Source: a virus. From it: a stretch of 24,139 nucleotides of DNA. The position numbers were made by a program, and so were the translations under genes. This document shows, in pieces, positions 1 through 23,789 of the stretch. The notes under the pieces were generated by a model that worked only from the letters and a program-made list of their open reading frames with translations, searched no databases and was not told the origin of the DNA. The stretch's first letter is position 1; every line of letters starts with the position of its first letter. The DNA is taken from positions 1-24,139 of IMG/VR virus record IMGVR_UViG_3300045988_181603. One strand, 5' to 3'.

Positions 1-119
1 AATCTCTCTAATTTCCTTGCAAACATTAAAAATGTGGGTAATTCCTCGCAGAGGGCTATGCCACAGGTTAAAAATTTTTCAAAAAATCTTTCGAGCATTG
101 AAAGTAATGCAAAAAAAGG
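1..119. repeat. Terminal overlap copy 1 (identical to 24021-24139)
   Basis: Direct comparison: aatctctctaatttccttgcaaacattaaaaatgtgggtaattcctcgcag... occurs at both ends. Confidence 0.95.
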
Positions 120-3100
120 AAGTTCGGGATTATCGAAGCTACTTTCCAATATCGAAAAAATGCTTGCACTAAAAATTTCTTTTTCAGGATTCAAAGATAT
201 GTTTGAAAAATCCTCTGAATTGCTGGAAGACTTCAACTATTTTGATCAGGCATTTAATCAGGTAGCAGAAAACGCAACTAAAACCTGGTCAGAAGCAGGT
301 TACAATTCTGCTGAGGAATACACAAACTCTTTTAGTAAAAAAGCCCGCGAACTAACTTCTAAAATGTCCGGATTCGATATTTCAGATACTGGCATCTTGT
401 CGACAAATAAAACTGGCAAGTCACTCGGCATGGACCCGTCACTACTTTTGAATGCTCAAGCTACATTTGCACAAATATCTTCCTCCATGGGAACAACTTC
501 TGAACAGGCGGCCAATTTGTCCGATGCATTGACCATGTTAGGGGCAGACCTCGCATCTCTCCGAAATGAAGATTTTAGCAAAGTTTATGATAATTTGACT
601 TCAGGTTTGACCGGCATGAGTAGAGCTGTCGATAAATACGGAATCAACATTCGAGTAGCTAACTTGCAGCAGGAAGCGGCAAACCTTGGAATACAAACAT
701 CTGTTTCCAACATGAGTCAGGCTGATAAGGTTCTGTTAAGGACCATCGTTATGCTGGAAAGTTCAAAAGGAGCATGGACGGATTTATCACGGACGATTTC
801 GCTCCCAGTAAACCAAATGCGTATATTCAAGAATAATTTGGCTATGATATCCCGATTGCTAGGAAACACCTTTCTTCCGATTGTAGCAAAGGCATTGCCA
901 TATATCAACGGACTTGCGATTGCTTTTCAGCGTCTCCTAATGGGAATTGGGAATCTGACAGGAGCAAATAAGCAGATCGGGCAAATGTACGGTGGTATCA
1001 CTAAAGGTTCAGATGTGCTTTCGGATGCTCTGGACGCTGTAGATGATACAGATTTATCCGGATTGAATGATACAACAGCTGATGCGGATGATAATTTAAA
1101 GAGTGCTGCTAAAAACGCCAAAAAGTTAAAACAGTTCCTTGCGTCCTATGACGAATTGGAGGTTATGAGCAAAAACGATGATTCATCTACAAGTCTTGGC
1201 TCAACGAAACTTAAAGTACCAGCTGTAGATACATCTGCATTAGACTCAAGCATTTTAAATGATAAATTAAACAGTTTACTTGGAGAATATCAAAAACAGT
1301 GGGATGCCGCCTACAATTCCATGGAAAATAAGGCCATGGCGTTCGCTAATAAAGTGCAGAGCGCTTTTGAAGCTTTAAAAACTGCTGCCGAGCCAACGAC
1401 TCAAGCATTGCAGAAATTATGGAATGAGGGTTTGAAACAGTTCGGAAATTTTACCTGGACATCCCTGAAAGATTTTTGGGAACATTTTCTAAAACCACTT
1501 GGGAAATGGACCTTGGGTAAAAAGGGACTGCCTCGGCTGATAAATGCTTTCAACAACTTCCTGACAAAGATAAAGTGGGGAAAAATCAATAAATCTCTGA
1601 GAAAGTTCTGGGATGCACTGGAACCACTGGCCGAAAATGTCGGTACCGGTATCCTCAACTTTTTCGACGATTTGTCGGAAAAAACAAGTGGATTAGTGAA
1701 CAAGCTTCCGGGTGGCATTGATAAGATAACAGAATTGATAAAGAAAATAAAACCCGAAACTGCGCAGAAGGTCGGATACGCTATCGGGCAGATTGCCACA
1801 TCCTTACTAATGTTCAAAGGATTAAAAAGCATCTCTGGAATTATAGGGAATTCTGGCATTGGTAAGTTCATATCTCAATTGGCCAAACATCCTCTTTTGA
1901 CAATAGCAGGTGGAATAACTGCCATTGTACTGGCCCTTGATAAGTTTGGAGTGATCGATATTGACTGGAGCGGAATCAGTCAGAGCTTTGAGAATCTAAA
2001 AGAACGTGTTGTAAATTTCGCCAAAAAAATTGATTGGAAGACCGTAAGCAATAACATTCAAGAAGGCATTAAAGCCGTTACTGACAAGATATTTGATTTT
2101 ATCGATAAGATTGACTGGAATGCGCTTTGGGAAGGCCTGACAAACACAATAAGCACAGTTTGGACAGGTATCAAAGACTTTGCCGGTTCTATTCACTGGG
2201 ACACAATCAAGGACGGATTAAGTAAGTTTGCTGAGGTATTGCCAGATTTGGCAGCAGGCTTCGGGCAGTTAAGCGCGGATATAATTAATAAATTGGCAGA
2301 TGCCTTTGATTGGTTGATGACTAAACTCAGCACGCTGGATCCAGATACTCTTGAAAAAATTGGATATGGCTTAGGTGTGATTTTCGCAGTCAAAATCGGT
2401 ACGGATTTAGCTGGTAAAATATTAGGTATTGCCAGCTCTTTCTCATCTTTAGGAGTTGCTCTCAAAGGGCTGAAATGGCTAATAAAAAGCGGCGAAGCTT
2501 TGGCGAGTGGTCTTGCTGCTGTTCTTGGTACGGTTGGCGGTGCAGCAGTGATTGGAGCCGGACTTGGTATTGCTGCATCTGAACAAACTGTTGATTCTAA
2601 GGGGAAAGAGCAGCAGTTTGAAGAACAGTCGAATAATTCAAGTTCAGCTGCAAGTCAATTATCTGCTACGTTGAAAGACCTTAATGAAAGAGGAATCATT
2701 ACATCCCAGACGTTCGATACGCTTTCTACGAAGCTTAATTCTTTTGTTGCTGGGACAAGTACAACGACAATATTTACCAGTATGAGAGACGCCATGATTG
2801 AAGCAGGTGTGTCGACAGATGAGCTGGCTGTATCAATCAATAATACAAACAGTGATCTGCAGTCATTCTACAACTTGGTAGCTCATGCGAGTGAAGGTGC
2901 CGGTACCGCAGATGGTCAGATAAAATCTTTTGCAGAAGCGATTAACACAATTAATCCGGATCCAATTATATCTAAGCTGTACACTTTACAGTCTACCGAA
3001 GAGCAGATCACATTTGCAAATCTGATTGTTGAGTCCTCAAATGCAATAGATCAGATGGGTGGCATCTGGGAAAATGGAAAACAGATTCTCGGCGAAAAAG

Positions 3101-4245
3101 CTATTGCGATTTATCAGGCAATTCAGGACGGATTAAAGCCAGATGAGAACGGATTCTACAATCTCGGAAATGGTCAAATGGTGCAATTTGGCAAGGCTAT
3201 TGATGATTATGATAAGACCCTCAAAGAAAAAGCCACATCAACCCTGACAGAGCCACTAAGATTAGGAATATCCGAAGTTCTTCCAGAATACAGCTCGTTT
3301 GGTGCAGACGCAAACGGATGGTTCATCACCGGACTGACAAGCATTGACCCAAGTACCGGCGTAAAGGTACAGGAAGCATTTAAAAGCGTCCTGGATAAGA
3401 TTGATACGACTTCGGCTGAGAGCATCGGAAAGACTACCGGTACGAATATGACAAGCGGAATAACAAAGGGAATGGAAGAAAATTCCCAAGCTGTCAAAGA
3501 TGCTACAAATAAGATGATTGACGATAATGTGAAAACTCCTGCTCAAGATTCTCTCGGCATTCACTCTCCGTCGAAGTGGTTTGAAAACTTGGCGAAATTT
3601 TGCGGTTCTGGGTTCGAGAATGGGCTTGACATTGGCTTTGATGGGGCTTTTACGTGGTTCGAAGGACTGCGAGCTAAAATTAACAATAGCATTGGCTCTC
3701 TTCACAGTGTTGGATGGAACGCCATCATTGGAATGAATAACGGTATGGTCGAGGCGGCAACTCAGCATCTGTACAAGAACGCTCAGGCAATTGCTGAGAA
3801 TATTGTAAATAAATTCCGCACATTTCTCAAAATAAATAGTCCATCACGTGTTATGGCAGAGATTGGTGGTTTTACTGTTGAAGGTATGATTGCTGGTATA
3901 CAATCCAAGATTCCTCGGATGGAAAGTACAATTCAAGATATCAGCAATGAAATTAAAAGGATGCAAACACCTCCCGCTGAATTAATTCCTCAAAATTATT
4001 TTTCTCAAAAACAAAGATTTGACAGCCAAAATCAAATAGATATGAGTAGCTTTATGGATACTGTTGAAAGAGAAGTTATGGCAATCAGCAGTAATGTGTT
4101 TAATAACAATGAATATCTCGGACAAGCAGTCAGAAATAGTCTTAACGGTATGGCAATCTATGCGGACGGACACTTGATTGGATATCTCCAAGAGGAAGAC
4201 CGACAATACAGGAACAGATCTGGCTACGGACTGTTCGAAGGGTAA
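1..4245 (+). CDS. Tail tape measure protein, remainder. The track's GTG start at 34 is internal; the true start is at 23790.
   Basis: Very long helical protein. It has a Gly/Ala-rich hydrophobic central segment (GYGLGVIF...AVLGTVGGAAVIGAGLGIAA) and periodic I/F-D-W repeats. Two C-terminal xHSPS/NSPS motifs (GIHSPSKWF, KINSPSRVM) are typical of siphovirus tape measure proteins. Confidence 0.85.
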   Translation, partial: NLSNFLANIKNVGNSSQRAMPQVKNFSKNLSSIESNAKKGSSGLSKLLSNIEKMLALKISFSGFKDMFEKSSELLEDFNYFDQAFNQVAENATKTWSEAGYNSAEEYTNSFSKKARELTSKMSGFDISDTGILSTNKTGKSLGMDPSLLLNAQATFAQISSSMGTTSEQAANLSDALTMLGADLASLRNEDFSKVYDNLTSGLTGMSRAVDKYGINIRVANLQQEAANLGIQTSVSNMSQADKVLLRTIVMLESSKGAWTDLSRTISLPVNQMRIFKNNLAMISRLLGNTFLPIVAKALPYINGLAIAFQRLLMGIGNLTGANKQIGQMYGGITKGSDVLSDALDAVDDTDLSGLNDTTADADDNLKSAAKNAKKLKQFLASYDELEVMSKNDDSSTSLGSTKLKVPAVDTSALDSSILNDKLNSLLGEYQKQWDAAYNSMENKAMAFANKVQSAFEALKTAAEPTTQALQKLWNEGLKQFGNFTWTSLKDFWEHFLKPLGKWTLGKKGLPRLINAFNNFLTKIKWGKINKSLRKFWDALEPLAENVGTGILNFFDDLSEKTSGLVNKLPGGIDKITELIKKIKPETAQKVGYAIGQIATSLLMFKGLKSISGIIGNSGIGKFISQLAKHPLLTIAGGITAIVLALDKFGVIDIDWSGISQSFENLKERVVNFAKKIDWKTVSNNIQEGIKAVTDKIFDFIDKIDWNALWEGLTNTISTVWTGIKDFAGSIHWDTIKDGLSKFAEVLPDLAAGFGQLSADIINKLADAFDWLMTKLSTLDPDTLEKIGYGLGVIFAVKIGTDLAGKILGIASSFSSLGVALKGLKWLIKSGEALASGLAAVLGTVGGAAVIGAGLGIAASEQTVDSKGKEQQFEEQSNNSSSAASQLSATLKDLNERGIITSQTFDTLSTKLNSFVAGTSTTTIFTSMRDAMIEAGVSTDELAVSINNTNSDLQSFYNLVAHASEGAGTADGQIKSFAEAINTINPDPIISKLYTLQSTEEQITFANLIVESSNAIDQMGGIWENGKQILGEKAIAIYQAIQDGLKPDENGFYNLGNGQMVQFGKAIDDYDKTLKEKATSTLTEPLRLGISEVLPEYSSFGADANGWFITGLTSIDPSTGVKVQEAFKSVLDKIDTTSAESIGKTTGTNMTSGITKGMEENSQAVKDATNKMIDDNVKTPAQDSLGIHSPSKWFENLAKFCGSGFENGLDIGFDGAFTWFEGLRAKINNSIGSLHSVGWNAIIGMNNGMVEAATQHLYKNAQAIAENIVNKFRTFLKINSPSRVMAEIGGFTVEGMIAGIQSKIPRMESTIQDISNEIKRMQTPPAELIPQNYFSQKQRFDSQNQIDMSSFMDTVEREVMAISSNVFNNNEYLGQAVRNSLNGMAIYADGHLIGYLQEEDRQYRNRSGYGLFEG

Positions 4246-4251
4246 TTCAAA

Positions 4252-4292
4252 AGAGCAGGCAAGCAGCAATGTTTGTCCTGCTCTATTTTTTT
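4252..4292 (+). terminator. Rho-independent terminator after the tape measure gene
   Basis: Stem agagcagg (4252-4259) / cctgctct (4277-4284), followed by a T-run. Confidence 0.75.
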
Positions 4293-4305
4293 ATTTTCCT
4301 GGCAC

Positions 4306-4334
4306 TGGCAATATGTAGAATTTTGTGCTATAAT
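4306..4334 (+). promoter_or_regulatory. Sigma-70-type promoter with extended -10
   Basis: TGGCAA - 17 bp - TATAAT (4329-4334), preceded by TGc. Confidence 0.55.
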
Positions 4335-4340
4335 ATAAAT

Positions 4341-4474
4341 GACAATTGAATACAGATAGACAATTAATATATGTAACTAAGAAGACGACTAAAACCGTAA
4401 GCAGACGGAAAGAAAAGGAACAAATAAAAGTTCTGAAAAATATCTGCAAGCGTGTTTTTGTCGTCTTTTTTTAT
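4341..4474 (+). ncRNA. Candidate leader or small RNA ending in a long imperfect hairpin plus U-tract
   Basis: aagacgacTaaaac (from 4382) pairs with gtttttgtcgtctt (to 4467). An inner gcaga/tctgc stem closes an A-rich ~35-nt loop, and a T-run follows. The overlapping 75-aa track ORF has a non-ATG start and no RBS. Confidence 0.4.
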
Positions 4475-4659
4475 TTCAAAAAAAATGGTTTTAGTCACTT
4501 TATTGGAGCTTTTGGAAGAAAAATAAAGTTCATACCTAATTATACTGAAACATACCAGGCGTCTATGCTATGATTCGGGCAACAGGAACGGGAACTATTT
4601 TTTTTGAAACCAAAAGTCAATAATCATTATTACTAAAAACTAAAAAAGGAGGGATTTTT

Positions 4660-4854
4660 GTGAAAAATATGGATATTCGACAGGAGATTGTTCAGAAGCG
4701 GCTTAGATCATATGAAGTAGCGGCTCAAATGCATATATCTGCGTCTAGTTTCTGCAGGTGGCTTCAGACAGATCTTACGCCAGAAAGAAAAGAAAGAATC
4801 CGAATCGCAATCGATGAATTATACCGGAAGAATTTGGAGGCATGTAGTGAGTGA
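4660..4854 (+). CDS. Small helix-turn-helix DNA-binding protein
   Basis: GTG start 6 nt after AGGAGGG. HTH-like segment LRSYEVAAQMHISASSFCRWL. First gene of the pri/rep-like operon. Confidence 0.6.
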   Translation: MKNMDIRQEIVQKRLRSYEVAAQMHISASSFCRWLQTDLTPERKERIRIAIDELYRKNLEACSE

Positions 4855-5425
4855 AATTTTTAAACAAGTTAACCAAGCATTGACCTGTCAGCAAGTAGCT
4901 GAGTGCCTTGGATTTACCGTAAATTCTAAAGGTTTCACGCACAGCCCAATTAATAAAGATGAAAAGACACCATCCTGCAAAATCTATCCCGGGAACCGTG
5001 GATTTTATGATTTTAGCTCTGCCACAGGCGGCGACTCTTTGAAGTTTGCCAGTCTTGTACTGGGCGTTGACAATTGGCAAGCTGCGCAATATTTAATCGG
5101 ATATTTTAATCTCAACATTGATACAAATGGCGATATCAGCAGGGCTGAGTTTGAAAAATTAAAGCGGCAACGCGAAGCCGATCAACTGCGGAAGGCAGTT
5201 GGGAAACAAAAATGGGTCGCTGAAATGGACAACCTGAAAGCTACCATTAGTATTTGTGAGAATCTACTGGTAAGTCCACGCGTTGAACCACTGTCTGACG
5301 TTTGGTGTATGGCAGTCAATCAAAGAAACAAGGCAATCGTCAAGGTAAACAAACTGGTAGGCGTTGAGACATTTGCAGCGGATTTGAGACTACCAGAAAG
5401 AAAAGGACAGAAGAAAGTGGGGTGA
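4847..5425 (+). CDS. Primase CHC2 zinc-finger-like domain protein (degenerate, no TOPRIM domain)
   Basis: GTG at 4847 lies 6 nt after TGGAGG and overlaps the upstream stop. DEKTPSCKIY...FYDFSSATGGDSLKF resembles the DnaG/P4 zinc-binding motif (CPFHxEKTPSF...CFGCGxxGD), but the Cys/His ligands are replaced. Confidence 0.5.
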   Translation: MSEIFKQVNQALTCQQVAECLGFTVNSKGFTHSPINKDEKTPSCKIYPGNRGFYDFSSATGGDSLKFASLVLGVDNWQAAQYLIGYFNLNIDTNGDISRAEFEKLKRQREADQLRKAVGKQKWVAEMDNLKATISICENLLVSPRVEPLSDVWCMAVNQRNKAIVKVNKLVGVETFAADLRLPERKGQKKVG

Positions 5426-6459
5426 TCGCATTGATTGAGAATAAAAAAGATTCGCTTCTGCTATCGTTGGATAGTGTTGAAGAAAAAGAAATCGAATGGC
5501 TTGTACCAGAATACTTACCCAGAGGGCAAATTTGCATCATGGCGGGGGACGGCGGCTCCGGAAAGACTACAATCTGGTGTAGTTTAGCGGCTGCTATAAG
5601 TTCTGGGACGAAGGTATTTTTTGAACGGACACCAGAGGAATTTGTTGAGAAAAAGCCACAAAAGGTACTTTTCTTCAGTTCTGAAGATTCCATTGAATAT
5701 GTGCTCAAAGCCAGATTACGAAAAGCTGGGGCGAATCTCAGTAATATATTTTCTGTTAATCTAAAAAATGAAAAGTTTTCAGAAATTAAATTTAATTCAC
5801 AGTTATTGCGCGATTTAATAGAGCAAGTACAGCCGGCTCTTGTAATCTTTGATCCGGTACAATCATTTATTCCGGATGGCGCGAATATGGCAAAGAGAAA
5901 CGAGATGAGATCTTGTTTAAACCACTTAATCGGCATTGGTGAACAGTATGGGACAACGTCTTTGATCGTCGTTCACACCAATAAGCGCACTGGAGCGTTC
6001 GGGCGAAAAAGAATATCGGATAGTTCGGATATTTGGGATATTGCGAGATCGGCGTTAGTCGTCGGGAACGTGTCAGGGAGCAATTTGCGCTATATGTCGC
6101 AGGAAAAATCAAACTACGGAGAATTAGCGCAGACAGCTTTGTTCAGCATAGATGATTCTGGCGCACACCTGGAAGAATATACAGACCGCCGAGACGCAGA
6201 CTTTGTTCGGGAGCAGGACTTCGAAGGCAGACAGGCACCGCAACGACAGGACGCTGAACAATTTATCAAGGATTTCCTGAGAGGCGGCAAAAAACCAACA
6301 TCAGAACTTGATGAAGCGGCACAAGCTGCAGGAATTAGTCGTTCAAGCCTGACAAGAGCTAAAACGAAGTTACGGAAGGATAATGTAATGAATGTGAAGT
6401 CCGAAGGTTTTGGCGGAAACAAAGTATTTTACAGCTACTTACTCGACCAGCGTTCATAG
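5422..6459 (+). CDS. RecA-fold AAA_25/RepA-like replicative helicase with a C-terminal winged-helix region
   Basis: Walker A GDGGSGKTT, Walker B-like LVIFDPV, SLIVVHTNK. C-terminal HTH-like AGISRSSLTRAKTKL. Start overlaps the upstream stop (GTGA). Confidence 0.75.
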   Translation: MIALIENKKDSLLLSLDSVEEKEIEWLVPEYLPRGQICIMAGDGGSGKTTIWCSLAAAISSGTKVFFERTPEEFVEKKPQKVLFFSSEDSIEYVLKARLRKAGANLSNIFSVNLKNEKFSEIKFNSQLLRDLIEQVQPALVIFDPVQSFIPDGANMAKRNEMRSCLNHLIGIGEQYGTTSLIVVHTNKRTGAFGRKRISDSSDIWDIARSALVVGNVSGSNLRYMSQEKSNYGELAQTALFSIDDSGAHLEEYTDRRDADFVREQDFEGRQAPQRQDAEQFIKDFLRGGKKPTSELDEAAQAAGISRSSLTRAKTKLRKDNVMNVKSEGFGGNKVFYSYLLDQRS

Positions 6460-6473
6460 AGGAAAATTTTAAA

Positions 6474-6666
6474 TGAGTGAGTAAGCTTGAAATCCTTTAT
6501 TTATAAGGGTTCCACTTACTCATCAATGTGAGTGAGTAAAGAGAAAGTGGAGTTACTTATTCACTCACCATGCGGAGTAAGCTAGAACCGCATAAACAGA
6601 GGGTTTGACGTTTATTCACTCACTTATCCGGTTTGTCAATGACATGGGAGAAGTAAGGAGTAAGCA
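6474..6666. repeat. Iteron-like cluster (GAGTGAGTAAG / GAGTAAG core in both orientations); candidate origin for the adjacent helicase
   Basis: Plus-strand copies at 6475-6485, 6530-6540, 6575-6582 and 6658-6665. Inverted copies at 6514-6522, 6556-6566 and 6612-6621. Confidence 0.55.
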
Positions 6667-6985: not shown

Positions 6986-7121
6986 CCGCCCGTCACCACC
7001 ATCCAGCAAGCACGCACTGGATCATTGGATGTCGTTCTGCAGACGGACGATTAAAGCAAATACCACCAATAAGAAAGACAACTGTAACAAACGATTAATT
7101 GATACTAAAAAAGGTAGGTGA
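6969..7121 (+). CDS. Possible small basic protein (50 aa), not in the ORF track
   Basis: ATG 9 nt after GGAGG. Arg/Lys-rich. The stop overlaps the RBS of the next gene. Confidence 0.3.
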   Translation: MPRRNNRPSPPSSKHALDHWMSFCRRTIKANTTNKKDNCNKRLIDTKKGR

Positions 7122-7126
7122 GTTAT

Positions 7127-7735
7127 ATGTCAAACGAATTAATCCGAAAGCGAGATGAGCATGGCGTTCGCATCGCAGGTGCATATTCCAAAAAATACTG
7201 CAAAGACAATGAAGAACTCGGTGATATGCCTGATTTATCGGCCATATTAGGCGTAGCCATTGAACAATTAAATGTCAGAAAAGCTGGCCGAATTCCAGAT
7301 TATGCAGATGATCCGCAGGGAATCGAAAGTTTTGTTTCTGCAACCCAGATGTATTTTGAATATATCACAGAAGCCAATCGCCAAAATGACGAGAAGCTGA
7401 TTCCAGATATAGAGGGGTGGTGTTTGTTCATCGGCGTAACTAAACAGACGGTCCTTAACTACGCCAAACGGAATAATACCTGGAAGGAATTGATTGATTA
7501 CATCAAAGAAAGCATACTCTCAGCAAAGAAACAGCTTGCTTTTCGTTTCAAGATTCCGCCTGTTGTCTATTTGAACGACGTGGCGAATAATCATGGTTAC
7601 CTCAATACAAACGAATTTAAGATAACTACATCTTCAGATTCTGGAATTAATGCTCCAACTCAGACAGCACAGCAGATTGCAGCCAAACACAGAACAGCTC
7701 TGGAGCTTCCGGAAATGGAGAAACCTGTTTTATAA
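7127..7735 (+). CDS. Terminase small subunit-like HTH protein, paralog 1
   Basis: Layout typical of Firmicutes siphophage TerS: MYFEYI...IPDIEGWCLFIGVTKQTVLNYAK...ILSAKKQL...VYLNDVANNHGY. ATG at 7127 follows AAGGTAGG. Confidence 0.55.
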   Translation: MSNELIRKRDEHGVRIAGAYSKKYCKDNEELGDMPDLSAILGVAIEQLNVRKAGRIPDYADDPQGIESFVSATQMYFEYITEANRQNDEKLIPDIEGWCLFIGVTKQTVLNYAKRNNTWKELIDYIKESILSAKKQLAFRFKIPPVVYLNDVANNHGYLNTNEFKITTSSDSGINAPTQTAQQIAAKHRTALELPEMEKPVL

Positions 7736-7825: not shown

Positions 7826-8338
7826 ATGCCGAAAAATAATTATCCAAATGCTGAAATTGACCGTTTACCAGATGAATTTGTGGAAACTTCTATAAATTCT
7901 CTTCAGGAACTGGCAGCACTCGGGAAAATATCATGTAAACCAGAGCAAGATGAAGAATTTGAACAGAGAGTTTCCCAAATTATAGATTTCTGCAAGCGTA
8001 AGAAAATGAGACCAGGTATCGAAACTTTATGCGCTGGACTCGGAATAACCAGACAAACGTTGAATGACTGGGAAAAAGGAACCTTTGGAGTGTCTGAACG
8101 CAGAAAAGAATCCGTACGGCAAGTCAAACAATTGATATATGCTTTTCTTGAACAAGCTGGTATGTCTGGGAAAATTCATCCTACTACATATATCTGGCTG
8201 ACAAAAAACTGGCAAAAATATTCAGAAAATTCTCCGATTGATACAGAAATTGCATATACAAATAAACCAAAAGAAAGTCTGGAGCAGATTAAAGAGGAAT
8301 TCGGAGGATTGCTTCTCAACTCAGATCAGCAATATTGA
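7826..8338 (+). CDS. Terminase small subunit-like HTH protein, paralog 2
   Basis: IIDFCKRKKMRPGIETLCAGLGITRQTLNDWEKG...VKQLIYAFLEQAGMSGKIHPTTYIWLTKNW matches the TerS architecture. GGAGG RBS. Confidence 0.6.
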   Translation: MPKNNYPNAEIDRLPDEFVETSINSLQELAALGKISCKPEQDEEFEQRVSQIIDFCKRKKMRPGIETLCAGLGITRQTLNDWEKGTFGVSERRKESVRQVKQLIYAFLEQAGMSGKIHPTTYIWLTKNWQKYSENSPIDTEIAYTNKPKESLEQIKEEFGGLLLNSDQQY

Positions 8339-9430: not shown

Positions 9431-10006
9431 TTAGTCACATTTCTTATTTCTCATTGACCTGATCAGCGTTGATTTACTGATTCCTGTCATCTGTACCACC
9501 TCTTTGTATGAATGGTCTAACAATAGGTCTAGCGCATGGTCTAGCTGTTTTTGATTATATTTCTTTGGTCTACCCTCTACAAAATCTGGGTTTTGTCTGG
9601 CAATTGCCTTACCAGCTTGACAGCGTTCAATAATCTGGTTTCGTTCAAGTTCTGCGACTGCTAAGAGAGTGGTTATGAAAAATTGTCCCATAGCTGTATC
9701 TTCCAGTAATCCGACATTAAGAACATGGACAGAGCATTTCTTTTGAAATAAATCCTTTACTATCTTGATTCCTTCCTCTGTGTTTCGTGCTAACCTGTCC
9801 AGCTTATTCACCACCAGCATATCTTTTTCTTTCATTTTCTGGATTACATCATTAAATACTGGTCTATCCGTAGTGGTTCCGGTATATGCTTCTTTATAAA
9901 TCTGAGCATCATTATACCTTGAGAGTATTTCCTGTTCTTGAGCTTGCAAACTATTACCGTCTTTAGCCTGCCCTTTTGTCGATACACGACAATATCCGAA
10001 TATCAT
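9431..10006 (-). CDS. Small serine recombinase (resolvase/invertase family)
   Basis: N-terminal GYCRVSTKGQ catalytic motif, LVVNKLDRLARN, C-terminal HTH (GISKSTLIR). 191 aa. Confidence 0.92.
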   Translation of the reverse strand: MIFGYCRVSTKGQAKDGNSLQAQEQEILSRYNDAQIYKEAYTGTTTDRPVFNDVIQKMKEKDMLVVNKLDRLARNTEEGIKIVKDLFQKKCSVHVLNVGLLEDTAMGQFFITTLLAVAELERNQIIERCQAGKAIARQNPDFVEGRPKKYNQKQLDHALDLLLDHSYKEVVQMTGISKSTLIRSMRNKKCD

Positions 10007-10027
10007 TGCTATTTTCCCCTTTCGTTA

Positions 10028-10150
10028 GTGACACTAAGTTATGACACCGTTTTATGCCTTGATTTTACATCTGTTGGTTTTTGGTGTCAATACTTTAAAG
10101 TTTTGATTCTTTTGAGTTGAACCACAATTTATATTATTATCTGTCAATTA
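10028..10150. promoter_or_regulatory. res-like repeat cluster plus the recombinase promoter
   Basis: TGACAC at 10028-10034 and 10042-10048; inverted GGTGTCA at 10083-10089; TGTCAAT(A/T)AC at 10085-10094 and 10142-10151. Minus-strand promoter TTGACA (10090-10085) - 17 bp - TAAAAT (10067-10062) overlaps one repeat. Confidence 0.5.
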
Positions 10151-12907: not shown

Positions 12908-13696
12908 ATGAACGAATTACAGGTTTTTAATTCAAAAGAGTTTGGGGATATCCGAACAACAGAAATTGACGGTAAACCGTATTTTGTGGCGAATGATGTA
13001 GCGAGAGCACTGGGATATAAAAGACCAGCAGACGCAGTTACGGCACATTGTAAGGGGTCGGTAAAACACCGATACCTTACCGATGGAGGAGAGCAGGAAT
13101 TAAAAGTTATCCCAGAGGGTGATATATACCGCCTTACCGTTCGCAGTAAACTCCCGTCGGCAGAAAAATTCGAGAAGTGGGTATTTGACGAAGTTATTCC
13201 ATCTATTCACCAATATGGAGCATATATGACTGAACAGACTATTGAGAAAGCACTTGCTTCTCCGGACTTCTTAATTCAACTGGCAACTAAGCTGAAAGAT
13301 GAACAGACAAGACGTAAAGAAGCCGAAGCGGAAATCAGAGTGAAAGACCAGATTATTGGAGAACTCAAGCCAAAAGCCGATTACTACGATGAAATCTTGA
13401 AGAATCCGGGACTTGTAACCATCACCCAGATTGCCAAAGATTATGGGATGTCAGGTAAGAAGATGAACAGAATTCTTCATGAACTGGGAATTCAGTATAA
13501 ACAGAGTGAGCAATGGCTTTTATACAGTGACTACCATTGTCTCGGATATACTCAATCTGAAGTTACTGATATTATCAGATCTGATGGAACTCCAGACGTA
13601 AAACTTCTTACTAAGTGGACCATGAAAGGCCGCCTCTTTCTTTATAATAAGCTGAAAGAAAAAGGTATTATTCCGGTAATTGAGCAGGGAAATTAA
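12908..13696 (+). CDS. Phage antirepressor (Bro-N domain + KilA-C/ANT domain)
   Basis: N-terminus LQVFNSKEFGDIRTTEIDGKPYFVANDVARALGY...EKFEKWVFDEVIPSI is Bro-N. C-terminus GLVTITQIAKDYGMSGKKMNRILHELGIQY is KilAC-type. Confidence 0.85.
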   Translation: MNELQVFNSKEFGDIRTTEIDGKPYFVANDVARALGYKRPADAVTAHCKGSVKHRYLTDGGEQELKVIPEGDIYRLTVRSKLPSAEKFEKWVFDEVIPSIHQYGAYMTEQTIEKALASPDFLIQLATKLKDEQTRRKEAEAEIRVKDQIIGELKPKADYYDEILKNPGLVTITQIAKDYGMSGKKMNRILHELGIQYKQSEQWLLYSDYHCLGYTQSEVTDIIRSDGTPDVKLLTKWTMKGRLFLYNKLKEKGIIPVIEQGN

Positions 13697-14218: not shown

Positions 14219-14989
14219 ATGATGAAAACTATTGTATTGGCAAACCAAAAGGGCGGATGTGCGAAGACTTCCACGACTCACGCTCTGGGTATCGGCTTGG
14301 CAAACCGAGGCTATAAAGTATTGCTGGCAGATCTGGACGCACAGTGCAACTTATGTGATTACTGCGGAGTTGATACGGAGAATGCATCCGCTACACTGTA
14401 CAATGTATTCCATGGACAGGCCACCATCCAGGATGCAATTGTAAATATTCGATTAGGGGTTGACCTATTGTTAGGCGATCTATTATTCACCAAAGCAGAT
14501 TCCGAATTCGTGCAAATCGGTAGAGAAACCATGCTCAAGAAAACTCTGGGAACTATACAGGACCGCTATGACTACTGCATTATAGATACTGCTCCAAGTC
14601 TTGGAATCTTATTGGCCAATGCGTTAGCTGCTGCCGATGGCGTAATCATTCCCCTTACAGCAAGTAGATTCTCCCTCAAGGGTATGAACCAGCTTTCACG
14701 ATTTATCGACGAAATCAGAGAAGACAGAAACCCAACCCTTAAAATTAATGGAGTGTTGCTGACTCGTTTTAATAAGCGAACTGTTCTCAACCGGTTATTA
14801 TTAGATGAGGTGCAGCAGTCTGCAGAACAACTCGGGACCAAGCTTTATAAGACGACTATACGACAATCTATCGTGATGGATGAGTCTCAGGTTATGCAGG
14901 AAGATATCTATTCTCAGAACAGCAGCATTGCAGAAGACTATAACAATTTCGTAGACGAATTCTTGGAGGATGAACATGGCGATAAATAA
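14219..14989 (+). CDS. parA: ParA/Soj-type partition ATPase (alternative start ATG 14222)
   Basis: Deviant Walker A NQKGGCAKTSTT, LLADLDAQCNL, IIDTAPSLG. Confidence 0.92.
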   Translation: MMKTIVLANQKGGCAKTSTTHALGIGLANRGYKVLLADLDAQCNLCDYCGVDTENASATLYNVFHGQATIQDAIVNIRLGVDLLLGDLLFTKADSEFVQIGRETMLKKTLGTIQDRYDYCIIDTAPSLGILLANALAAADGVIIPLTASRFSLKGMNQLSRFIDEIREDRNPTLKINGVLLTRFNKRTVLNRLLLDEVQQSAEQLGTKLYKTTIRQSIVMDESQVMQEDIYSQNSSIAEDYNNFVDEFLEDEHGDK

Positions 14990-16738: not shown

Positions 16739-16850
16739 AATCTGAAATAGAAGATGCGTTTTCATACGTGTATATATTATATACGTTTATATCGTTTAAC
16801 GTTTAGGGGGCCTTGAAACCCTTGATTTTACTGGATTTTTGAGACATAAA

Positions 16851-16975
16851 AACGAGAAATATACAGTAATAAACGAGAAATATACAGTTTAAAAACGAGA
16901 TTTATACAGTTTGCAGAGAGAAAGCCATAATTTTAAAAACGAGAAAAACACAGTTTAAAACGAGAATTTTTACTT
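16851..16975 (+). repeat. Replication iterons (AACGAGAAATATACAGT, 4 good copies plus 1 degenerate) at 21-22 bp phasing
   Basis: Copies at 16851-16867, 16872-16888, 16894-16910, 16938-16954 and 16959-16975. An AT-rich tract lies at 16745-16800. All sit directly upstream of the rep gene. Confidence 0.85.
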
Positions 16976-17031
16976 GAACTTTATCGTTTTAAATGATATG
17001 ATTTATTCATCATTTGTATGGGGGATTTTAT

Positions 17032-17955
17032 ATGGATTTAGCAGAGCATATCTGGAGCACGGATGAAAATAATGAATTGAAAAAACGAGAGATAGACACT
17101 CGTGAATCTGTCCGGACTGTTACATCAAATCAATTTATAACAGCCTGTGGGTTGGAAAATATAAGCCTAAAGGCAAGGAAACTTCTATATGTAGCAATTG
17201 GCCAGTGCAGAGTAACGGATACAGAATTTTATGAGTATTCTCTTTCTGTTAGGGATTTTGCCGCATTGATGGATGTGGACCCCAGTAATGTTTACAGAGA
17301 GGGAGAGTCAATTGCGGATGAACTTTCTAAGGGGTTTATAAAAATCAAACCGGAAAGCAGCACTGTTAAATTCAAGAATTATCCGTTATTCGCGGAATGC
17401 TATATGGACAATGCTAATATCGTTTTTGCTTTAAATAAGCGAATGACCGATTATTTTCTCATGATAAAGGGGAGCTTTACACAGCCATTACTGGCAGATT
17501 TCTTAAAAATGAAAAGTCCTTACAGCATGGCAATTTGGCATCTTATGCAACGAGAGATGAACAGTCAGAAGCCAGGATTAACTCAGACAATAGCTTTTCA
17601 ATTAAGTTTGCAGGAGATACGAGAAGTTACCGGCACTCAGAAGAAATTTGAACGTTTAAGCGATATTAAAAGATATGTGTTGGATAAAGCAATTAGAGAA
17701 ATCGAAGAGAATTGTGGCGTTGTGATCACATACACAAATATCAAGAGAGGTAGAACTGTGACGGGATTTCAGTTTGAGGCAGTATCTGAATTTCATGTAG
17801 ATCCATCTAAAATTAAGCAGTCTACCAGAAATAAAGTAAATGTGAGAAAAACACAGCCGATGATAGAACCCCCAAATAGCGTAAAAAAATCTGCAAATAA
17901 AAATGAAGTACCTGGACAGGAAAGCATATTTGATATTTTGGAAAAATTGCAGTAG
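17032..17955 (+). CDS. rep: Rep_3 (RepB-like) theta-replication initiator protein
   Basis: VTSNQFITACGLENISLKARKLLYVAIGQ..., YSMAIWHLMQ..., LSLQEIREVTG...RLSDIKRYVLDKAIREIEENCGVVITYTNIKRGRTVTGFQFE match the Rep_3 pattern. Iterons lie upstream. A TGaTATGAT -10 lies near 16994. Confidence 0.85.
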   Translation: MDLAEHIWSTDENNELKKREIDTRESVRTVTSNQFITACGLENISLKARKLLYVAIGQCRVTDTEFYEYSLSVRDFAALMDVDPSNVYREGESIADELSKGFIKIKPESSTVKFKNYPLFAECYMDNANIVFALNKRMTDYFLMIKGSFTQPLLADFLKMKSPYSMAIWHLMQREMNSQKPGLTQTIAFQLSLQEIREVTGTQKKFERLSDIKRYVLDKAIREIEENCGVVITYTNIKRGRTVTGFQFEAVSEFHVDPSKIKQSTRNKVNVRKTQPMIEPPNSVKKSANKNEVPGQESIFDILEKLQ

Positions 17956-18178: not shown

Positions 18179-19162
18179 ATGGATTTATCTACAATAGAAA
18201 AGGAAATTCAAACTGTTATTGAAGCAGATAAAGCATCATGGATAAGAATTTATCAGTTGATGTCAGAGGTAGAATCAGAGAAATTATATGAGAATACTTA
18301 TAGCTCCTATACTCAATGGGTAAATAAAATTGCTGAGAACATGCATATTCATGTATCACTGTTATGGCGCAGAAAAAAAGCAGGAGCTTTTTATAGTGAA
18401 TATTTAAAGCGAATGGAAGCCAGAGGAAAGAAAGTTTCTTTTGATGATATTGAGAGAGTATCACCAGACAATTTAGTTCTGGCAGAGAGAATTGCTGGTA
18501 ATAATACTGCAATTGCGGATCAGCTGATTGAGAAAATACAGCAAGGAGAACTTAAGCGAAAAGACTTATCAAGCGCATTGGCAGCAGCTAAACGTTGTCG
18601 AGCTGAAAAAGGTATTCCTGATCCAGTTAATGGGTATGATAAGCAGAAGCTCCAAGAGCAGAAAGAAACAGACGAAGCAATCAAACCTGATCAGAAAAAA
18701 ATTACTGCAATGGATATTATGGCAGCTCTTGAGATATACCGGCATTGGATAGGAGAGCCTATTGAGAAGCAGGGACGGGTACCAAAATATAAAGTATTTG
18801 GAGAATTTGCTGTTGATTCTCCGGGAACACGAAATGCCAGGAGAATTGACGCTTTAGTTGCAGAAACAATTACTGCAAAATATCCCAGACAAATAAAATT
18901 GCATGGAATTGAGATAAAAGTATCTCGATCAGATTTAGAACATGATGATAAAATGGCAGAATATACCCAGTATGTTGACTGCTTCTGGATTGCAATACCA
19001 CCGCATCTTGTGGATGATGCTAAGGACCTGGCAATGCCTTGTTGGGGAATTTTATCTGTTGACGAAGAAAAACTGGAAGTAGTTCGAAATGCTTCTAACA
19101 ATGCGGAATATGGCATATTCAGAGATGTTGCGCTGTCAGAAATCATATATAAATTAATGTAG
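18179..19162 (+). CDS. Two-domain protein: N-terminal helical/DNA-binding-like region + C-terminal MmcB-like PD-(D/E)xK nuclease fold
   Basis: RRIDALVAE...LHGIEIKVSRSDLEHDDKMAEYTQYVDCFWIAIP resembles the D...E-x-K core and K-x-x-Y segment of the MmcB/DUF1052 family. Confidence 0.5.
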   Translation: MDLSTIEKEIQTVIEADKASWIRIYQLMSEVESEKLYENTYSSYTQWVNKIAENMHIHVSLLWRRKKAGAFYSEYLKRMEARGKKVSFDDIERVSPDNLVLAERIAGNNTAIADQLIEKIQQGELKRKDLSSALAAAKRCRAEKGIPDPVNGYDKQKLQEQKETDEAIKPDQKKITAMDIMAALEIYRHWIGEPIEKQGRVPKYKVFGEFAVDSPGTRNARRIDALVAETITAKYPRQIKLHGIEIKVSRSDLEHDDKMAEYTQYVDCFWIAIPPHLVDDAKDLAMPCWGILSVDEEKLEVVRNASNNAEYGIFRDVALSEIIYKLM

Positions 19163-19435
19163 AATTTCTATTTTACTAGATAATGTTCTAGTAAAAGGCT
19201 GTAAGGGGAGCATCTCGGAAAAGTAAGGAAATACGGCTGTAAGAGCGGTGTACCTTCGGGTACGATCGTGTCAAAAATGAAAAAAAATGACATTAGTATA
19301 CTGTTGAAAATATGAGAAATTATGATATTATAAAGTCAAGATGCAGTAGCTCATGGTTGATAGCATAGAACAATATATTATAAGATATTACAGAACTTCC
19401 GTTAAATAAAAATTATTATTTTGGAGGTAATGTAT

Positions 19436-19702
19436 ATGTACAGCTTAACAACATTAAGAAAAAGAGCCTATGAGGCTGGTTATAGAATCGAGAAAGGATT
19501 TCAGCATTATATGTATAACGGTGCTGTTTGCAGAGATTGCAACGGGGATGCGTATACGGGATATAATGTGTGGGATTTATCGAATAATCAACTTGTATGG
19601 GGAAGTGGTTGCTATGATGGTAATTATGATCACTTATGTACATTGGAAGATGTTGAAGAGTTTTTAAAAGAAGCATATGAGAGAGCCGGGTTGACCTGGT
19701 AA
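19436..19702 (+). CDS. Hypothetical Cys/Tyr-rich small protein (88 aa)
   Basis: ATG 8 nt after GGAGG; no recognised motif. Confidence 0.5.
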   Translation: MYSLTTLRKRAYEAGYRIEKGFQHYMYNGAVCRDCNGDAYTGYNVWDLSNNQLVWGSGCYDGNYDHLCTLEDVEEFLKEAYERAGLTW

Positions 19703-19730
19703 TTTTCTCACTACCATGAAAAGACTGCAG

Positions 19731-19778
19731 AAAACAGGAATTATCTTTTAACGGGGATATTTCCTGTTTTTTTGTTTT
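19731..19778 (+). terminator. Rho-independent terminator
   Basis: aaaacaggaa / ttcctgtttt stem followed by TTTGTTTT. Confidence 0.65.
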
Positions 19779-19800
19779 AAAAGACGCCAAAAGTTGTATA

Positions 19801-19829
19801 TTGATTTCAAATTTAACATATGCTATAAT
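19801..19829 (+). promoter_or_regulatory. Strong promoter of the antitoxin-like sRNA
   Basis: TTGATT - 17 bp - TGcTATAAT. Confidence 0.65.
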
Positions 19830-19835
19830 GCCAAT

Positions 19836-19904
19836 AGGCAAAAACGATGTGAGTATCCATGTTGGTACTCGAAAAGCCCCGGAGGTACGAACTCCGGGGC
19901 TTTT
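19836..19904 (+). ncRNA. Candidate type I antitoxin sRNA (RNA II-like, ~68 nt)
   Basis: Runs from the promoter above to the intrinsic terminator. It carries AAAAACGATGTGA and TCCATGTTGG, which also occur at 20014-20040 and are therefore complementary to the minus-strand toxin mRNA start region. Confidence 0.55.
19872..19904. terminator. Bidirectional intrinsic terminator shared by the convergent sRNA and toxin mRNA
   Basis: AAAA-gccccggag-gtacgaa-ctccggggc-TTTT. Confidence 0.75.
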
Positions 19905-19949
19905 CTATTCCGTTTAGGCAGGGTGGCTTGTTCCCTAGGCTGGCTACCT

Positions 19950-20036
19950 TTACTTATCTCCATCCAACCATTTGCAAATGTAGTAGGCAACTACACTCGC
20001 CAAAATAGAGAGTAAAAACGATGTGAATAACTCCAT
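19950..20036 (-). CDS. Type I toxin candidate, Fst/Ldr-like, 28 aa, not in the ORF track
   Basis: MELFTSFLLSILASVVAYYICKWLDGDK: one TM helix plus a charged tail. GGGGGTGA SD 7 nt upstream. Minus-strand TGaTATAAT -10 at 20093-20085. Confidence 0.6.
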   Translation of the reverse strand: MELFTSFLLSILASVVAYYICKWLDGDK

Positions 20037-20261
20037 GTTGGACTCACCCCCTCTCTGCACCTGTCTAGGGGCGGTAGCTCAACCATTATATCATAATTTG
20101 TTCTGTAAAACATTTCTTTTTTATTTCCCCAAAATCGAATTCGAATTCACTTTTTTAGTTCCTGACAGTGAAATGAGCAATCATTCATCCTCTATCAGGA
20201 CTTTTTTATTTTCGGAGTTTTTTATCATTATGTAATTGTCAAAGAAAAACGACAGGAGCTT

Positions 20262-21547: not shown

Positions 21548-22663
21548 TTAATTTCTTTCTATGTATTTTGGCATAAAGTATGCAGAATTGTGACCGTCCC
21601 ACTTATTAACAGCATAATTTATAATTTTGCCATAAAGAGTTATATATGTTCCCGGTGCGAAATCGCTTCCGCTATATCCTGTGTTCAAAGAATACAAAAT
21701 ACCCAGATCTTTACTACTGCCGTAACTGTCAGTGTCTTTAGAATAAATTCCAACCATGCTTATTGTTTTGTCAAGATTGTATTTTTGTATTAATTCCATG
21801 ACTTGCGCATCATAATATTTTTTAGAATTAATTACACCAGAATCTTCTATGTACAATTTGACTTTTACATACTCGCCTTCAAGGTTAATGTCAGAAAACG
21901 CAATATCTTCATACCACATTTCTTTGCACCTTGACTTAAAATCCTGTTCTGATAATTCAACTCCTTCAATAATTTTTCCGGACTCATTTGAATAATCTTG
22001 TTTGCCTTGTTCAAATAATTGAGCCGGTTCACCACCAGTAGCAGATATATTAGAGTTGTCCAATTGGACTTCCCCGAGAGATATTCCATTAACAAGCCCT
22101 GTAACTGTCATATAATCACCCTCGGACAAATCTGAACGCGGTTCGAGAAGAGTCACATAGAATTTTCCGGCAGCATCATTGTCAATCTCGACAATATCTT
22201 CGCTTGCATAACTGATAGGGGCAGATATGGTAACATATTGATTGTTATATTCCTCGTAGTTATCAAACAGCTTTAGAGCTGGAAGAACAGTGGAATCTTC
22301 TATTGAAACTGGTTGTGGCACTGGGGTAGAAGTCGGCTCAGGGATAGGAGTATCTGTGATTTTTACATCTGAGGTTTCGGATGCCTTAGAACTAGAATCA
22401 GAATTATTCGTTCCAAAATGTCGCCCTGTCATAGCTACCACAACTATAATGATTATTACATATGATAAGCACCCAAGGTTTTGAGACTGAGCACCTTGAA
22501 CCTTTTGAGCTTTTTGAGCTTTACGGGCTTTTTTTAATTCCTTCTTATCCCTTCTTTCCTGTATAATTTCTGATGCACTTCTAAAAGGATGCCCGCAATA
22601 GGGACATACATCAGCGTGCCGGCTTATCTTGCGTTTGCAATCCGGGCATTTCATCAATCCCAT
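21548..22663 (-). CDS. Zinc-ribbon, single-pass membrane protein with a Pro/Thr linker and large extracytoplasmic domain
   Basis: CPDCKRKISRHADVCPYCGH zinc ribbon, Lys-rich segment, TM helix YVIIIIVVVAMTG, PIPEPTSTPVPQP linker. Strong GAAGGAGG RBS. Confidence 0.75.
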   Translation of the reverse strand: MGLMKCPDCKRKISRHADVCPYCGHPFRSASEIIQERRDKKELKKARKAQKAQKVQGAQSQNLGCLSYVIIIIVVVAMTGRHFGTNNSDSSSKASETSDVKITDTPIPEPTSTPVPQPVSIEDSTVLPALKLFDNYEEYNNQYVTISAPISYASEDIVEIDNDAAGKFYVTLLEPRSDLSEGDYMTVTGLVNGISLGEVQLDNSNISATGGEPAQLFEQGKQDYSNESGKIIEGVELSEQDFKSRCKEMWYEDIAFSDINLEGEYVKVKLYIEDSGVINSKKYYDAQVMELIQKYNLDKTISMVGIYSKDTDSYGSSKDLGILYSLNTGYSGSDFAPGTYITLYGKIINYAVNKWDGHNSAYFMPKYIERN

Positions 22664-22745
22664 TTTCTTTTTCCTCCTTCGTAAGAATTTGATATTTTTA
22701 CTATATCATTTTTTTTAGTATTATAAAATGTAAATTTACTTCTAT

Positions 22746-23040
22746 TTTCCTATGAAATCATACTGAATCATACATTAAAATGTTGTATAATATAAAATGT
22801 CAAAGTTGATACCAAATGATACTGAATGATACCTAAATATTTGATATAATGTATTATGTAAAAAGTTGAACCCAAATGAACCCTCGGAATTTGATATAAT
22901 ATATATGTATAAATGTATTTTTCTAACTTCCTATGAAAAAAGTATGGAATAGTATGATACAAAACTGCTATGATTATAATATAAAATATGACACTAGAAA
23001 CCACTGAAAAACACTTTGGTTTTTGATATAATAAATAAAT
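22746..23040 (+). repeat. Array of five degenerate ~50-70 bp units, each ending in a TTGATATAAT-type extended -10 box
   Basis: -10 boxes at 22786-22791, 22845-22850, 22895-22900, 22975-22980 and 23027-23032. Each is preceded by a unit-specific duplicated word: ATCATAC x2, GATAC(C) x3, GAACCC x2, GTATGxA x2, GAAAxCACT x2. Confidence 0.6.
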
Positions 23041-23053
23041 CAAAAGATATTTA

Positions 23054-23082
23054 AGCATCTGCAAATGAGCAGGTGCTTTTTT
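23054..23082 (+). terminator. Plus-strand intrinsic terminator directly after the promoter-like array
   Basis: agcatctgc / gcaggtgct stem. Its U-G pair is valid only on the plus strand. TTTTTT follows. Confidence 0.65.
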
Positions 23083-23117
23083 ATTATCATAAAATATTTA
23101 ATTTAAGAAAGGAGAAT

Positions 23118-23288
23118 ATGATGGTATTCGATGTAATCAAATTATTAACAACAGTTTTTTTAGCCCTGGTAGGAGGATATTTTTGCGTGAATGCCTGGAA
23201 CGAACGTGACGATTCAAATAACTTGATGGGAAATACGATTTGTGGTTTATTCATGATCCTGTCATTGGTTTGTATCTGGTATAAATAG
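23118..23288 (+). CDS. Small two-TM membrane protein (56 aa; alternative start 23121)
   Basis: AGGAG RBS. VIKLLTTVFLALVGGYFCV and ICGLFMILSLVCIWY hydrophobic helices. Confidence 0.5.
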   Translation: MMVFDVIKLLTTVFLALVGGYFCVNAWNERDDSNNLMGNTICGLFMILSLVCIWYK

Positions 23289-23711: not shown

Positions 23712-23726
23712 AGCAACGGCAATCAT

Positions 23727-23761: not shown

Positions 23762-23789
23762 TACTCGGATTCCATAGAAAGGAGTAAAC

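Follow-up and report, generated by a model that had tools for sequence, protein, structure and literature searches.

The tape measure gene and its operon

The window analysed here is the whole of IMG/VR virus record IMGVR_UViG_3300045988_181603, a stretch of 24,139 bp from a plasmid-like element that encodes a tape measure protein (TMP). Bases 1-119 are an exact copy of bases 24021-24139, and this 119-bp terminal overlap indicates that the record represents a circle of 24,020 bp. The size of the overlap is consistent with an assembler k-mer. The TMP open reading frame (ORF) crosses the junction of the circle, codes for 1491 amino acids (aa) and makes up 18.6% of the element, close to the 19 percent given in the initial annotation. 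It is the third gene of an operon, after genes for a 55-aa and a 136-aa protein, and has a ribosome-binding site AAAGGAG at 23779-23785. The features of the operon are:

22744-23040, plus strand: promoter array of five late-promoter-like units, about 700-1000 nt upstream of the TMP gene
23053-23085, plus strand: promoter-proximal terminator T1, after the last array unit
23121-23288, plus strand: leading gene of the operon, for a 55-aa protein that has two hydrophobic segments
23301-23711, plus strand: 136-aa protein with a novel predicted fold, directly upstream of the TMP gene
23715-23761, plus strand: terminator T2, a 13-bp stem (23727-23755) and a T7 run ending at 23761, within a 47-nt block
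23790-24139, plus strand: 5' part of the TMP gene (ATG at 23790; 24021-24139 duplicates 1-119)
1-4245, plus strand: remainder of the TMP gene (stop codon 4243-4245)
4252-4296, plus strand: terminator T3, directly after the TMP stop codon and conserved in plasmid-like relatives

The product had been called a TMP from its motifs, all of which were located: I/F-D-W at nt 1960, 2029, 2110 and 2305, the duplicated motif as HSPSK at nt 3562 and NSPSR at nt 3835, and the Gly/Ala-rich hydrophobic core at nt 2377-2431 and 2497-2578. Hydrophobic segments were found at residues 704-731, 870-888 and 910-937. Profile searches confirmed the call, with matches to phrog_28918 (1e-118) and to phrog_1535, "tail length tape measure protein" (7.6e-33), and with seven further TMP families of PHROG matching the C-terminal 200-300 residues. 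No Pfam family scored above its cut-off for this protein. The TMP is 60-65% identical to proteins of 1610-1612 aa located in phage tail modules, and no non-virion family, the alternative named at the outset as a refutation, competes with this homology. In Pfam and PHROG scans of the remaining 34 ORFs no gene for capsid, portal, TerL, tail tube, chaperone or baseplate was found, nor a match for a baseplate hub protein, which leaves the TMP, described as an orphan from the start, as the sole virion gene of the window.

Relationship to phage tape measure proteins

A search of 5.8 billion proteins returned TMP homologues in two groups. Those of the first group share at least 73% identity, are 1435-1491 aa long and lie on contigs of about 23-25 kb, which come from several human-gut samples and share the synteny of the window. 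The second group (46-64% identity, 1607-1983 aa) lies on contigs of 74-80 kb, and some of its members carry the name "minor tail protein, Siphoviridae sp.". Matches among reference phages were partial and distant by tblastn, and the GTDB representative genomes gave only two distant matches, in one Clostridia and one Lachnospiraceae metagenome-assembled genome (MAG). The small elements are treated below as probable phage satellites and the large contigs as their candidate helper phages.

In the phages the TMP gene sits in a tail module, preceded by three small genes (164, 161 and 126 aa) and followed by genes for a DUF6711 protein, a 1444-1515-aa Big_3/LRR protein and a CHAP lysin; the window holds no tail gene other than the TMP. 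The phage TMPs examined (P0024, P0026, P0054, P0075 and P0080) fall into two length classes, of about 1610-1658 and 1935-1983 aa, which differ by a 330-aa insertion near the N-terminus, and helper tails should therefore come in two lengths.

The satellite gene is a mosaic. Residues 1101-1200 are 97% identical to those of phage TMP P0024, and over residues 1105-1204 the nucleotide identity with the phage gene is 91-92% (78% at third codon positions). It drops to about 45-55% at the N-terminus, where third-position identity is about 30%. Such locally high identity amid low identity, third positions included, points to recent gene conversion with phage TMP genes, and hence to a cellular gene pool shared by satellite and phages. 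The N-terminal 130 aa or so are satellite-specific, the first 100-200 residues are only 43-49% identical between satellite and phage, and the phage proteins have an extra 161 or 491 N-terminal residues. Between residues 700 and 900 the alleles differ sharply, with about 30% identity, and satellites and phages hold them in shuffled combinations.

The ORF was intact in all relatives examined, with a dN/dS of 0.08-0.2 in most pairs and of 0.28-0.48 in pairs with the mosaic allele of relative L023. The TMP is under purifying selection and is a real, maintained tail protein. TMPs set tail length at 1.5 angstrom per residue, a rule that predicts tails of about 224 nm for the satellite and of about 242 or 290 nm for the phages.

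Late-promoter array and terminators

Each unit of the array consists of 5-mer direct repeats at 10-nt spacing, followed after about 9 nt by TGnTATAAT. The strict form of this architecture occurs three times within 130 nt, against an expectation of 0.07 per shuffled genome. In the candidate helper phages the same architecture is present once per genome, between an LtrB/DUF1492 gene and the portal gene, in the order TerL, a regulator of about 140 aa, repeats, -10 box, hairpin with T6, ribosome-binding site and SPP1-type portal gene (93 bits). A phage ORF of 578 aa was considered as the portal and rejected: it is TerL, with the Walker A motif VPPGCGKST, and is named terminase in the sources. The phage promoters fall into at least four operator classes, and the regulator's recognition helix varies from class to class. 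Three units of the array each match one operator class: U1 class D (z-score against shuffles 15.5), U2 class B (12.9) and U5 class A (11.8). The array thus resembles, in sequence and in architecture, the phage promoter located behind the regulator gene.

The phage regulators have a sigma-70 region-4-like C-terminus, and those of one class match DUF1492 (24.2 bits, cut-off 21.5), the other classes scoring below the cut-off. DUF1492 (LtrB) proteins have been shown experimentally to activate their cognate late promoters specifically (PMC3753634). No Ltr-like regulator was found in the ORF scans of the window.

The number of units in the array varies among relatives. A sixth late-promoter-like unit lies at 4530-4574, ahead of the replication and packaging genes, and consists of CATAC/TATAC/CATAC at 10-nt spacing followed by TGCTATGAT; it sits in an insertion specific to the window and absent from the plasmid-like relatives L018, L021 and L023. 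A 98-aa minus-strand ORF at 22768-23064, conserved in tblastn, was rejected as a gene, being the other strand of the conserved AT-rich promoter array.

According to the initial annotation the TMP gene had no promoter of its own. This is correct for the 28-nt spacer in front of the start codon, which contains no sigma-70-like match, and incorrect for the operon, which is headed by the array. The intrinsic terminator that had been proposed at 23727-23761, 28 nt before the ATG, was corroborated by its stem, its T7 run and a folding energy of -18.4 kcal/mol (T2). The 47-nt block around it is identical in all plasmid-like relatives except L005, which has one change. A related island in Blautia has two changes in the block, with a 136-aa protein and a TMP N-terminus only about 50% identical to those of the window. 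The block, kept while the flanking proteins diverge, is under stronger constraint than its neighbours. Other lineages of the family have one or two different terminator hairpins at this position. The idea that the T2 hairpin itself is common to the phages was discarded, as it turned up in satellites alone when IMG/VR was scanned for its exact pattern.

The first terminator, T1, has a phage counterpart: its stem base AGCAYC...GGTGCT and T6 run are common to all phage late-promoter hairpins and occupy the same position. The phage TMP genes also lie behind a terminator, with a 16-bp stem and T7 about 25 nt upstream of the start, and further strong hairpins are found on the coding strand inside the phage late operon. 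The satellite operon thus mirrors both phage features, the promoter-proximal terminator and the one before the TMP gene. A late operon with promoter-proximal and internal terminators needs a termination-resistant polymerase. The earlier suggestion that expression may depend on read-through supplied by a helper is strengthened: the operon opens with copies of the phage late promoter, promoter-proximal terminator included, and the phages too have a terminator before the TMP gene. On these grounds, helper-dependent read-through of T1 and T2 is the best-supported reading, the read-through itself being deduced from the arrangement. The regulatory region as a whole is conserved more strongly than the neighbouring genes.

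The 55-aa and 136-aa proteins and related elements

About 30 homologues of the 136-aa protein were found, a diverse set with 25-42% identity. In all three distant homologues examined (29-40% identity) the gene lies between a gene for 53-59 aa and one for 1092-1499 aa, on elements that also carry TerS-like and primase genes. Modelling from four close sequences gave an unusable structure (pLDDT 38); with 29 sequences a confident model was obtained (pLDDT 91.7). This model had no fold match in PDB or in the viral structure library BFVD, and no profile relation was found between the 136-aa protein and the phage proteins encoded before the TMP. It was on this basis rejected as a candidate chaperone. 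Neither of the partners that accompany the TMP in the chimeric tails of the Vibrio PLE satellites, a chaperone gene beside the TMP and a baseplate hub, was found in the window.

An integrated relative (L001; TMP 76% identical) is a chromosomal island between rpmB and an Asp23 gene, with flanking genes that match Blautia proteins exactly and flanks that match Ruminococcus sp. AF41-9. It is bounded by 23-bp direct repeats TCGTCCAAAAGAGGTTATAATAC at 7593-7615 and 23723-23745, 16,130 bp apart, and carries a tyrosine integrase and a D5_N primase. Island and window share, at 24-76% identity, the zinc-ribbon, 55-aa, 136-aa, TMP and primase-like proteins and four small genes. A related plasmid-like element of 19.8 kb (L026), with a ParA 83% identical to that of the window, has a different TMP allele in the same slot: L026:160-3678 codes for 1172 aa, matches phrog_1535 at 4e-154 and has two terminator hairpins in front.

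TerS-like proteins and their probable role in packaging

Two genes downstream of the replication module are candidates for a role in packaging:

7118-7735, plus strand: TerS-like protein 1, C-terminal tail ...QTAQQIAAKHRTALELPEMEKPVL
7826-8338, plus strand: TerS-like protein 2, tail motif ...ESLEQIKEEFGGLL

Both matched phrog_606, at 3e-7 and 3e-8. The tail ...QTAQQIAAKHRTALELPEMEKPVL of the first protein is near-identical to that of phage type A (...QTAQQIADKHRAALELPEMEKPEL), and the tail ...ESLEQIKEEFGGLL... of the second to that of phage type B (...ESLEQIKEEFGGLLTGE). Elsewhere the two proteins are only 25-33% identical to the phage TerS-like proteins. The phage TerL is nearly invariant except for its first 92 or so residues, which occur in two types. 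Tail type and TerL N-terminal type covaried at all 86 phage loci (59 A/A, 27 B/B, none mixed); promoter classes, unlike the TerS tails, reassort across both TerL types. The simplest reading of this pattern has the TerS tail docking on the N-terminus of TerL, in which case the satellite would have one adaptor for each helper type. Between the phage TerS-like gene and TerL lie accessory genes (Arc-like, invertase, Ant, LemA or RtcB; loci L027-L133).

The phage genomes measure 75-80 kb, and multiples of the satellite lengths come close to this size (3 x 24.0 kb = 72 kb, 4 x 19.8 = 79 kb and 5 x 16.1 = 81 kb). If multimers were packaged into normal heads, the lack of capsid-size genes would be accounted for; the arithmetic by itself is no more than suggestive.

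These TerS-like genes bear on an alternative role for the TMP, namely that it is mainly an interference weapon, expressed in the late phase to poison or mis-size phage tails as an abortive defence of the host population and not for the element's own transfer. Late-promoter mimicry would time such expression to phage morphogenesis, the satellite TMP is some 160-490 N-terminal residues shorter than the phage TMPs and would give shorter tails, and interference with tail assembly is a known strategy of satellites and defence systems (PMC11364771, PMC12987554). The two TerS-like proteins with helper-type tails, together with a dedicated inducible replication module, indicate packaging and transfer instead, and by continuing to recombine with helper TMPs the protein stays suited to helper tail parts instead of becoming defective. 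Nor does interference rule out a use of the TMP in particles of the element itself; PLE11 does both. We therefore regard a mainly interfering role as unlikely.

Plasmid backbone, replication module and other genes

The remaining features of the window are:

4814-6459, plus strand: replication module, primase-like and helicase-like
4814-5425, plus strand: CHC2 zinc-ribbon, DnaG-like primase-like protein
5422-6459, plus strand: AAA_25 helicase-like protein (95 bits)
6470-6626, no strand assigned: putative origin of the primase/helicase module, 70-nt inverted arms of TGAGTGAGTAA repeats just after the helicase-like gene
12908-13696, plus strand: BRO-N/KilAC antirepressor (Ant), with phage relatives at 33-36% identity
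14219-17955, plus strand: plasmid maintenance block, with ParA, a 129-aa partner, a coiled-coil/helix-turn-helix protein, iterons and Rep_3 initiator
14219-14989, plus strand: ParA (AAA_31/ParA, 164 bits)
16847-16966: four iterons of 21-22 bp, TAAAAACGAGAAATATACAGT, directly upstream of the Rep_3 gene
17014-17955, plus strand: Rep_3 initiator (Rep3_N 77.3 bits, Rep3_C 56.9 bits)
21548-22663, minus strand: zinc-ribbon membrane protein, divergent from the TMP operon, its position kept in the island relative

The iterons and the Rep_3 gene form a classic theta-plasmid origin, and the window holds all the hallmarks of a Rep_3 theta plasmid: initiator, upstream iterons and ParA ATPase. A serine resolvase and an Arc-like protein are also encoded. 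The arrays at 6470-6626 are a probable second origin, like that in phage-inducible chromosomal islands (PICIs), so that the element seems to have two replication systems. As in PICI-like satellites, genes for capsid, portal, TerL and tail tube are lacking and the element has its own primase/helicase and origin repeats. For the integrase and attachment (att) site of such satellites there is only a weak tyrosine-recombinase-like ORF, and the att sequence of the integrated relative is not present in the window.

With its complete plasmid backbone of Rep_3, ParA, resolvase and iterons, and without close matches in the plasmid or phage reference sets, the element could be taken for an ordinary plasmid or a decayed phage-plasmid that acquired a phage fragment, the TMP being a functionless relic. 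This explanation is largely refuted, and we consider it highly improbable: many samples have an intact ORF of 1435-1491 aa, with the low dN/dS given above, the 55-aa/136-aa/TMP triad recurs with different TMP alleles on integrative islands and on other plasmid-like backbones, and the regulatory region is better conserved than the genes around it.

The antirepressor is a possible link to a resident prophage. By analogy, a satellite-borne Ant could induce a resident helper prophage, much as the epsilon protein of satellite P4 induces P2.

Most satellite relatives share no more than 36-39% identity in the zinc-ribbon membrane protein. The C-terminal 256 aa of the protein match, at 90% identity, the product of a 476-aa gene beside the lysis end of a candidate helper prophage contig (L143:16179-17376, minus strand), and it may be a shared surface or exclusion gene. 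This protein enters a further proposal, in which the TMP acts at entry: a variant TMP in helper tails would evade superinfection exclusion and admit satellite DNA to cells in which a resident prophage, or surface or membrane proteins, stop helper-type TMPs, with the zinc-ribbon protein as the matching exclusion factor. The hydrophobic, channel-forming region of the TMP (residues 700-900) exists as shuffled alleles of about 30% identity, and the membrane protein keeps its position beside the operon, its outer domain being 90% shared with the prophage-end gene. TMP-directed exclusion proteins are known from phages of lactic acid bacteria, such as Ltp of phage TP-J34. The zinc-ribbon protein has no homology to known exclusion proteins in Pfam and PHROG scans. 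The proposal concerns the benefit and still needs incorporation into helper tails, so that it refines the use of the TMP in helper tails and does not replace it; taken as an explanation of its own, we consider it unlikely.

No useful close DNA match to the window was found in the plasmid or phage reference collections. Rfam and tRNA scans of the window gave no match at threshold. Below threshold, 19861-20078 (minus strand) resembles the Streptococcus sRNA SpF66 (28.7 bits, cut-off 42); the match sits in a stretch of about 1.2 kb without convincing ORFs, with a perfect 14-bp hairpin at 19871-19905. Bases 19937-20018 show an 83% match to an unannotated stretch of a Ligilactobacillus salivarius megaplasmid. 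A conserved TG-extended -10 promoter is present at 4305-4334, ahead of the replication genes, followed by a structured stretch of about 130 nt with a T-run end at about 4460-4480, which may serve as leader or attenuator or form a small RNA.

Proposed life cycle of the satellite

The explanation we favour, and think probable, is that the window is a complete 24.0-kb plasmid-like phage satellite, that its helpers are the abundant 75-80 kb temperate siphophages of gut Lachnospiraceae and that its TMP is used in helper tails. From the similarities described, we infer activation, read-through, incorporation into particles and a selective benefit as follows. At rest, the element would persist as a plasmid by means of Rep_3 and ParA. 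Once the late phase of a helper begins, the helper's LtrB/DUF1492-type regulator would bind one of the five late-promoter copies at 22744-23040, and the polymerase, termination-resistant as in the helper late operon, would read through T1 and T2. The 55-aa protein, the 136-aa protein and the TMP would consequently be made only in the helper late phase. The satellite TMP, combined with helper-made tail parts, would give chimeric tails, while the two TerS-like proteins would dock on the TerL of the helper and have satellite DNA packaged into full-size heads, probably in multimeric form (three copies, 72 kb). The benefit may lie in escape from a satellite-made inhibitor of the helper TMP, in escape from TMP-directed exclusion or in a change of tail length.

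Several points weigh against this explanation. The relationship with the helpers is read from sequence alone. Units U3 and U4 of the array had no counterpart among the sampled phages. The resemblance of the regulator to Phage_antitermQ is not significant (E 0.02-0.04), and LtrB proteins are documented as activators, not as antiterminators (PMC3753634). The 136-aa protein is without recognisable chaperone identity. The TerS calls are weak, at 28.0 and 20.1 bits for Pfam GP3_package against a cut-off of 29.4; the covariation, a raw count of 86 of 86 loci, could partly reflect shared ancestry; and in the phages TerL is found about 8 kb downstream of the TerS-like gene (as in L046, at 18255-19991 and 9461-10108). 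One copy of the phage gene was named in a Roseburia MAG, but the integrated relative resides in Blautia.

A more far-reaching version, which we put forward tentatively, has the element as a multi-helper satellite. The five promoter mimics would sense several phage lineages, the two TerS tails would fit both TerL types, and the triad would be an undescribed tail-hijacking module widespread in gut Firmicutes, in which the role of the 136-aa protein is either to block the TMP of the helper or to guide that of the satellite into helper tails.

Comparison with known systems

In the PLEs of Vibrio cholerae, the satellite TMP replaces that of phage ICP1 in the virions and shortens the tails, and putative tmp genes are mentioned for PLE-like elements and some cf-PICIs (PMC12987554, Nature 2026). 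By analogy, the TMP of the window would replace that of its helper, one of the roles suggested at the outset. The PLEs (PLE11, PLE1, PLE4) and the window have in common a satellite-encoded TMP with otherwise helper tail parts, as far as the latter can be read from sequence. They differ in that the PLEs are integrated islands in a Gram-negative host with a lytic myovirus as helper, whereas the window is plasmid-like with a temperate siphophage as candidate helper. The PLE TMP is about 20% identical to that of its helper, against 50-65% and recombination for the window, and it is accompanied by a recognisable chaperone, often also by a baseplate hub. Neither chaperone nor hub is recognisable in the window, where the partners of the TMP are instead the 55-aa membrane protein and the 136-aa protein of novel fold.

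EPIPs of Mycolicibacterium aichiense are satellites with a TMP and altered tail length (PMC12822802, preprint 2025). Their tails are longer than those of the helper, and they also have head-tail adaptor, stopper, scaffold and capsid-related genes and a serine integrase, whereas the TMP is the only virion gene of the window.

The Staphylococcus aureus pathogenicity islands (SaPIs) and other PICIs resemble the window in being small and free of structural genes, with a primase/helicase and an iteron origin, and their own TerS for the helper TerL has a putative counterpart in the TerS-like proteins; they also resemble the family of the window in its integrated relative with integrase and att repeats. 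Unlike them, the window has two TerS-like paralogues with different helper tail types, a plasmid backbone instead of an integrase, no capsid-size genes and a TMP. The two adaptors are most simply read, by comparison, as the SaPI/PICI strategy doubled.

P4, the satellite of phage P2, is able to persist in plasmid form, has late promoters that answer the helper activator Ogr and can derepress its helper. It has no tail gene and one promoter type, compared with five different helper-type units in tandem, with terminators, in the window. In phage lambda, which has the Q regulator, the terminator tR' closely follows the promoter PR'. The Ltr and Q systems share with the phage layout described here a regulator gene directly upstream of the late operon and cognate sites at the promoter; the window, unlike these systems, encodes no such regulator. 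Ltr proteins are described as activators only, and antitermination is deduced here from the terminators in the phage late operon.

Five differences thus separate the window from the known satellites with a TMP: a plasmid backbone, a temperate siphophage as helper, a TMP related to and recombining with that of the helper, no chaperone or hub, and the promoter array with double TerS. Full-text literature searches returned no description of this satellite family, and the family and its regulatory design appear undescribed.

Significance for satellite biology

Satellite-encoded TMPs were first shown only in 2025-26, in Vibrio and Mycolicibacterium. The present family would extend them to the abundant Lachnospiraceae phages of the human gut and to a plasmid-borne satellite. 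Its parts are tractable: promoter units that can be matched one to one with helper regulators, terminators that mirror those of the helper, two adaptors with docking partners predictable from sequence and a three-gene tail module. The combination of a gene of about 55 aa, a gene of about 136 aa and a TMP gene with TerS-like and primase genes gives a search signature for satellites that are currently filed as "viral" or "plasmid" contigs.

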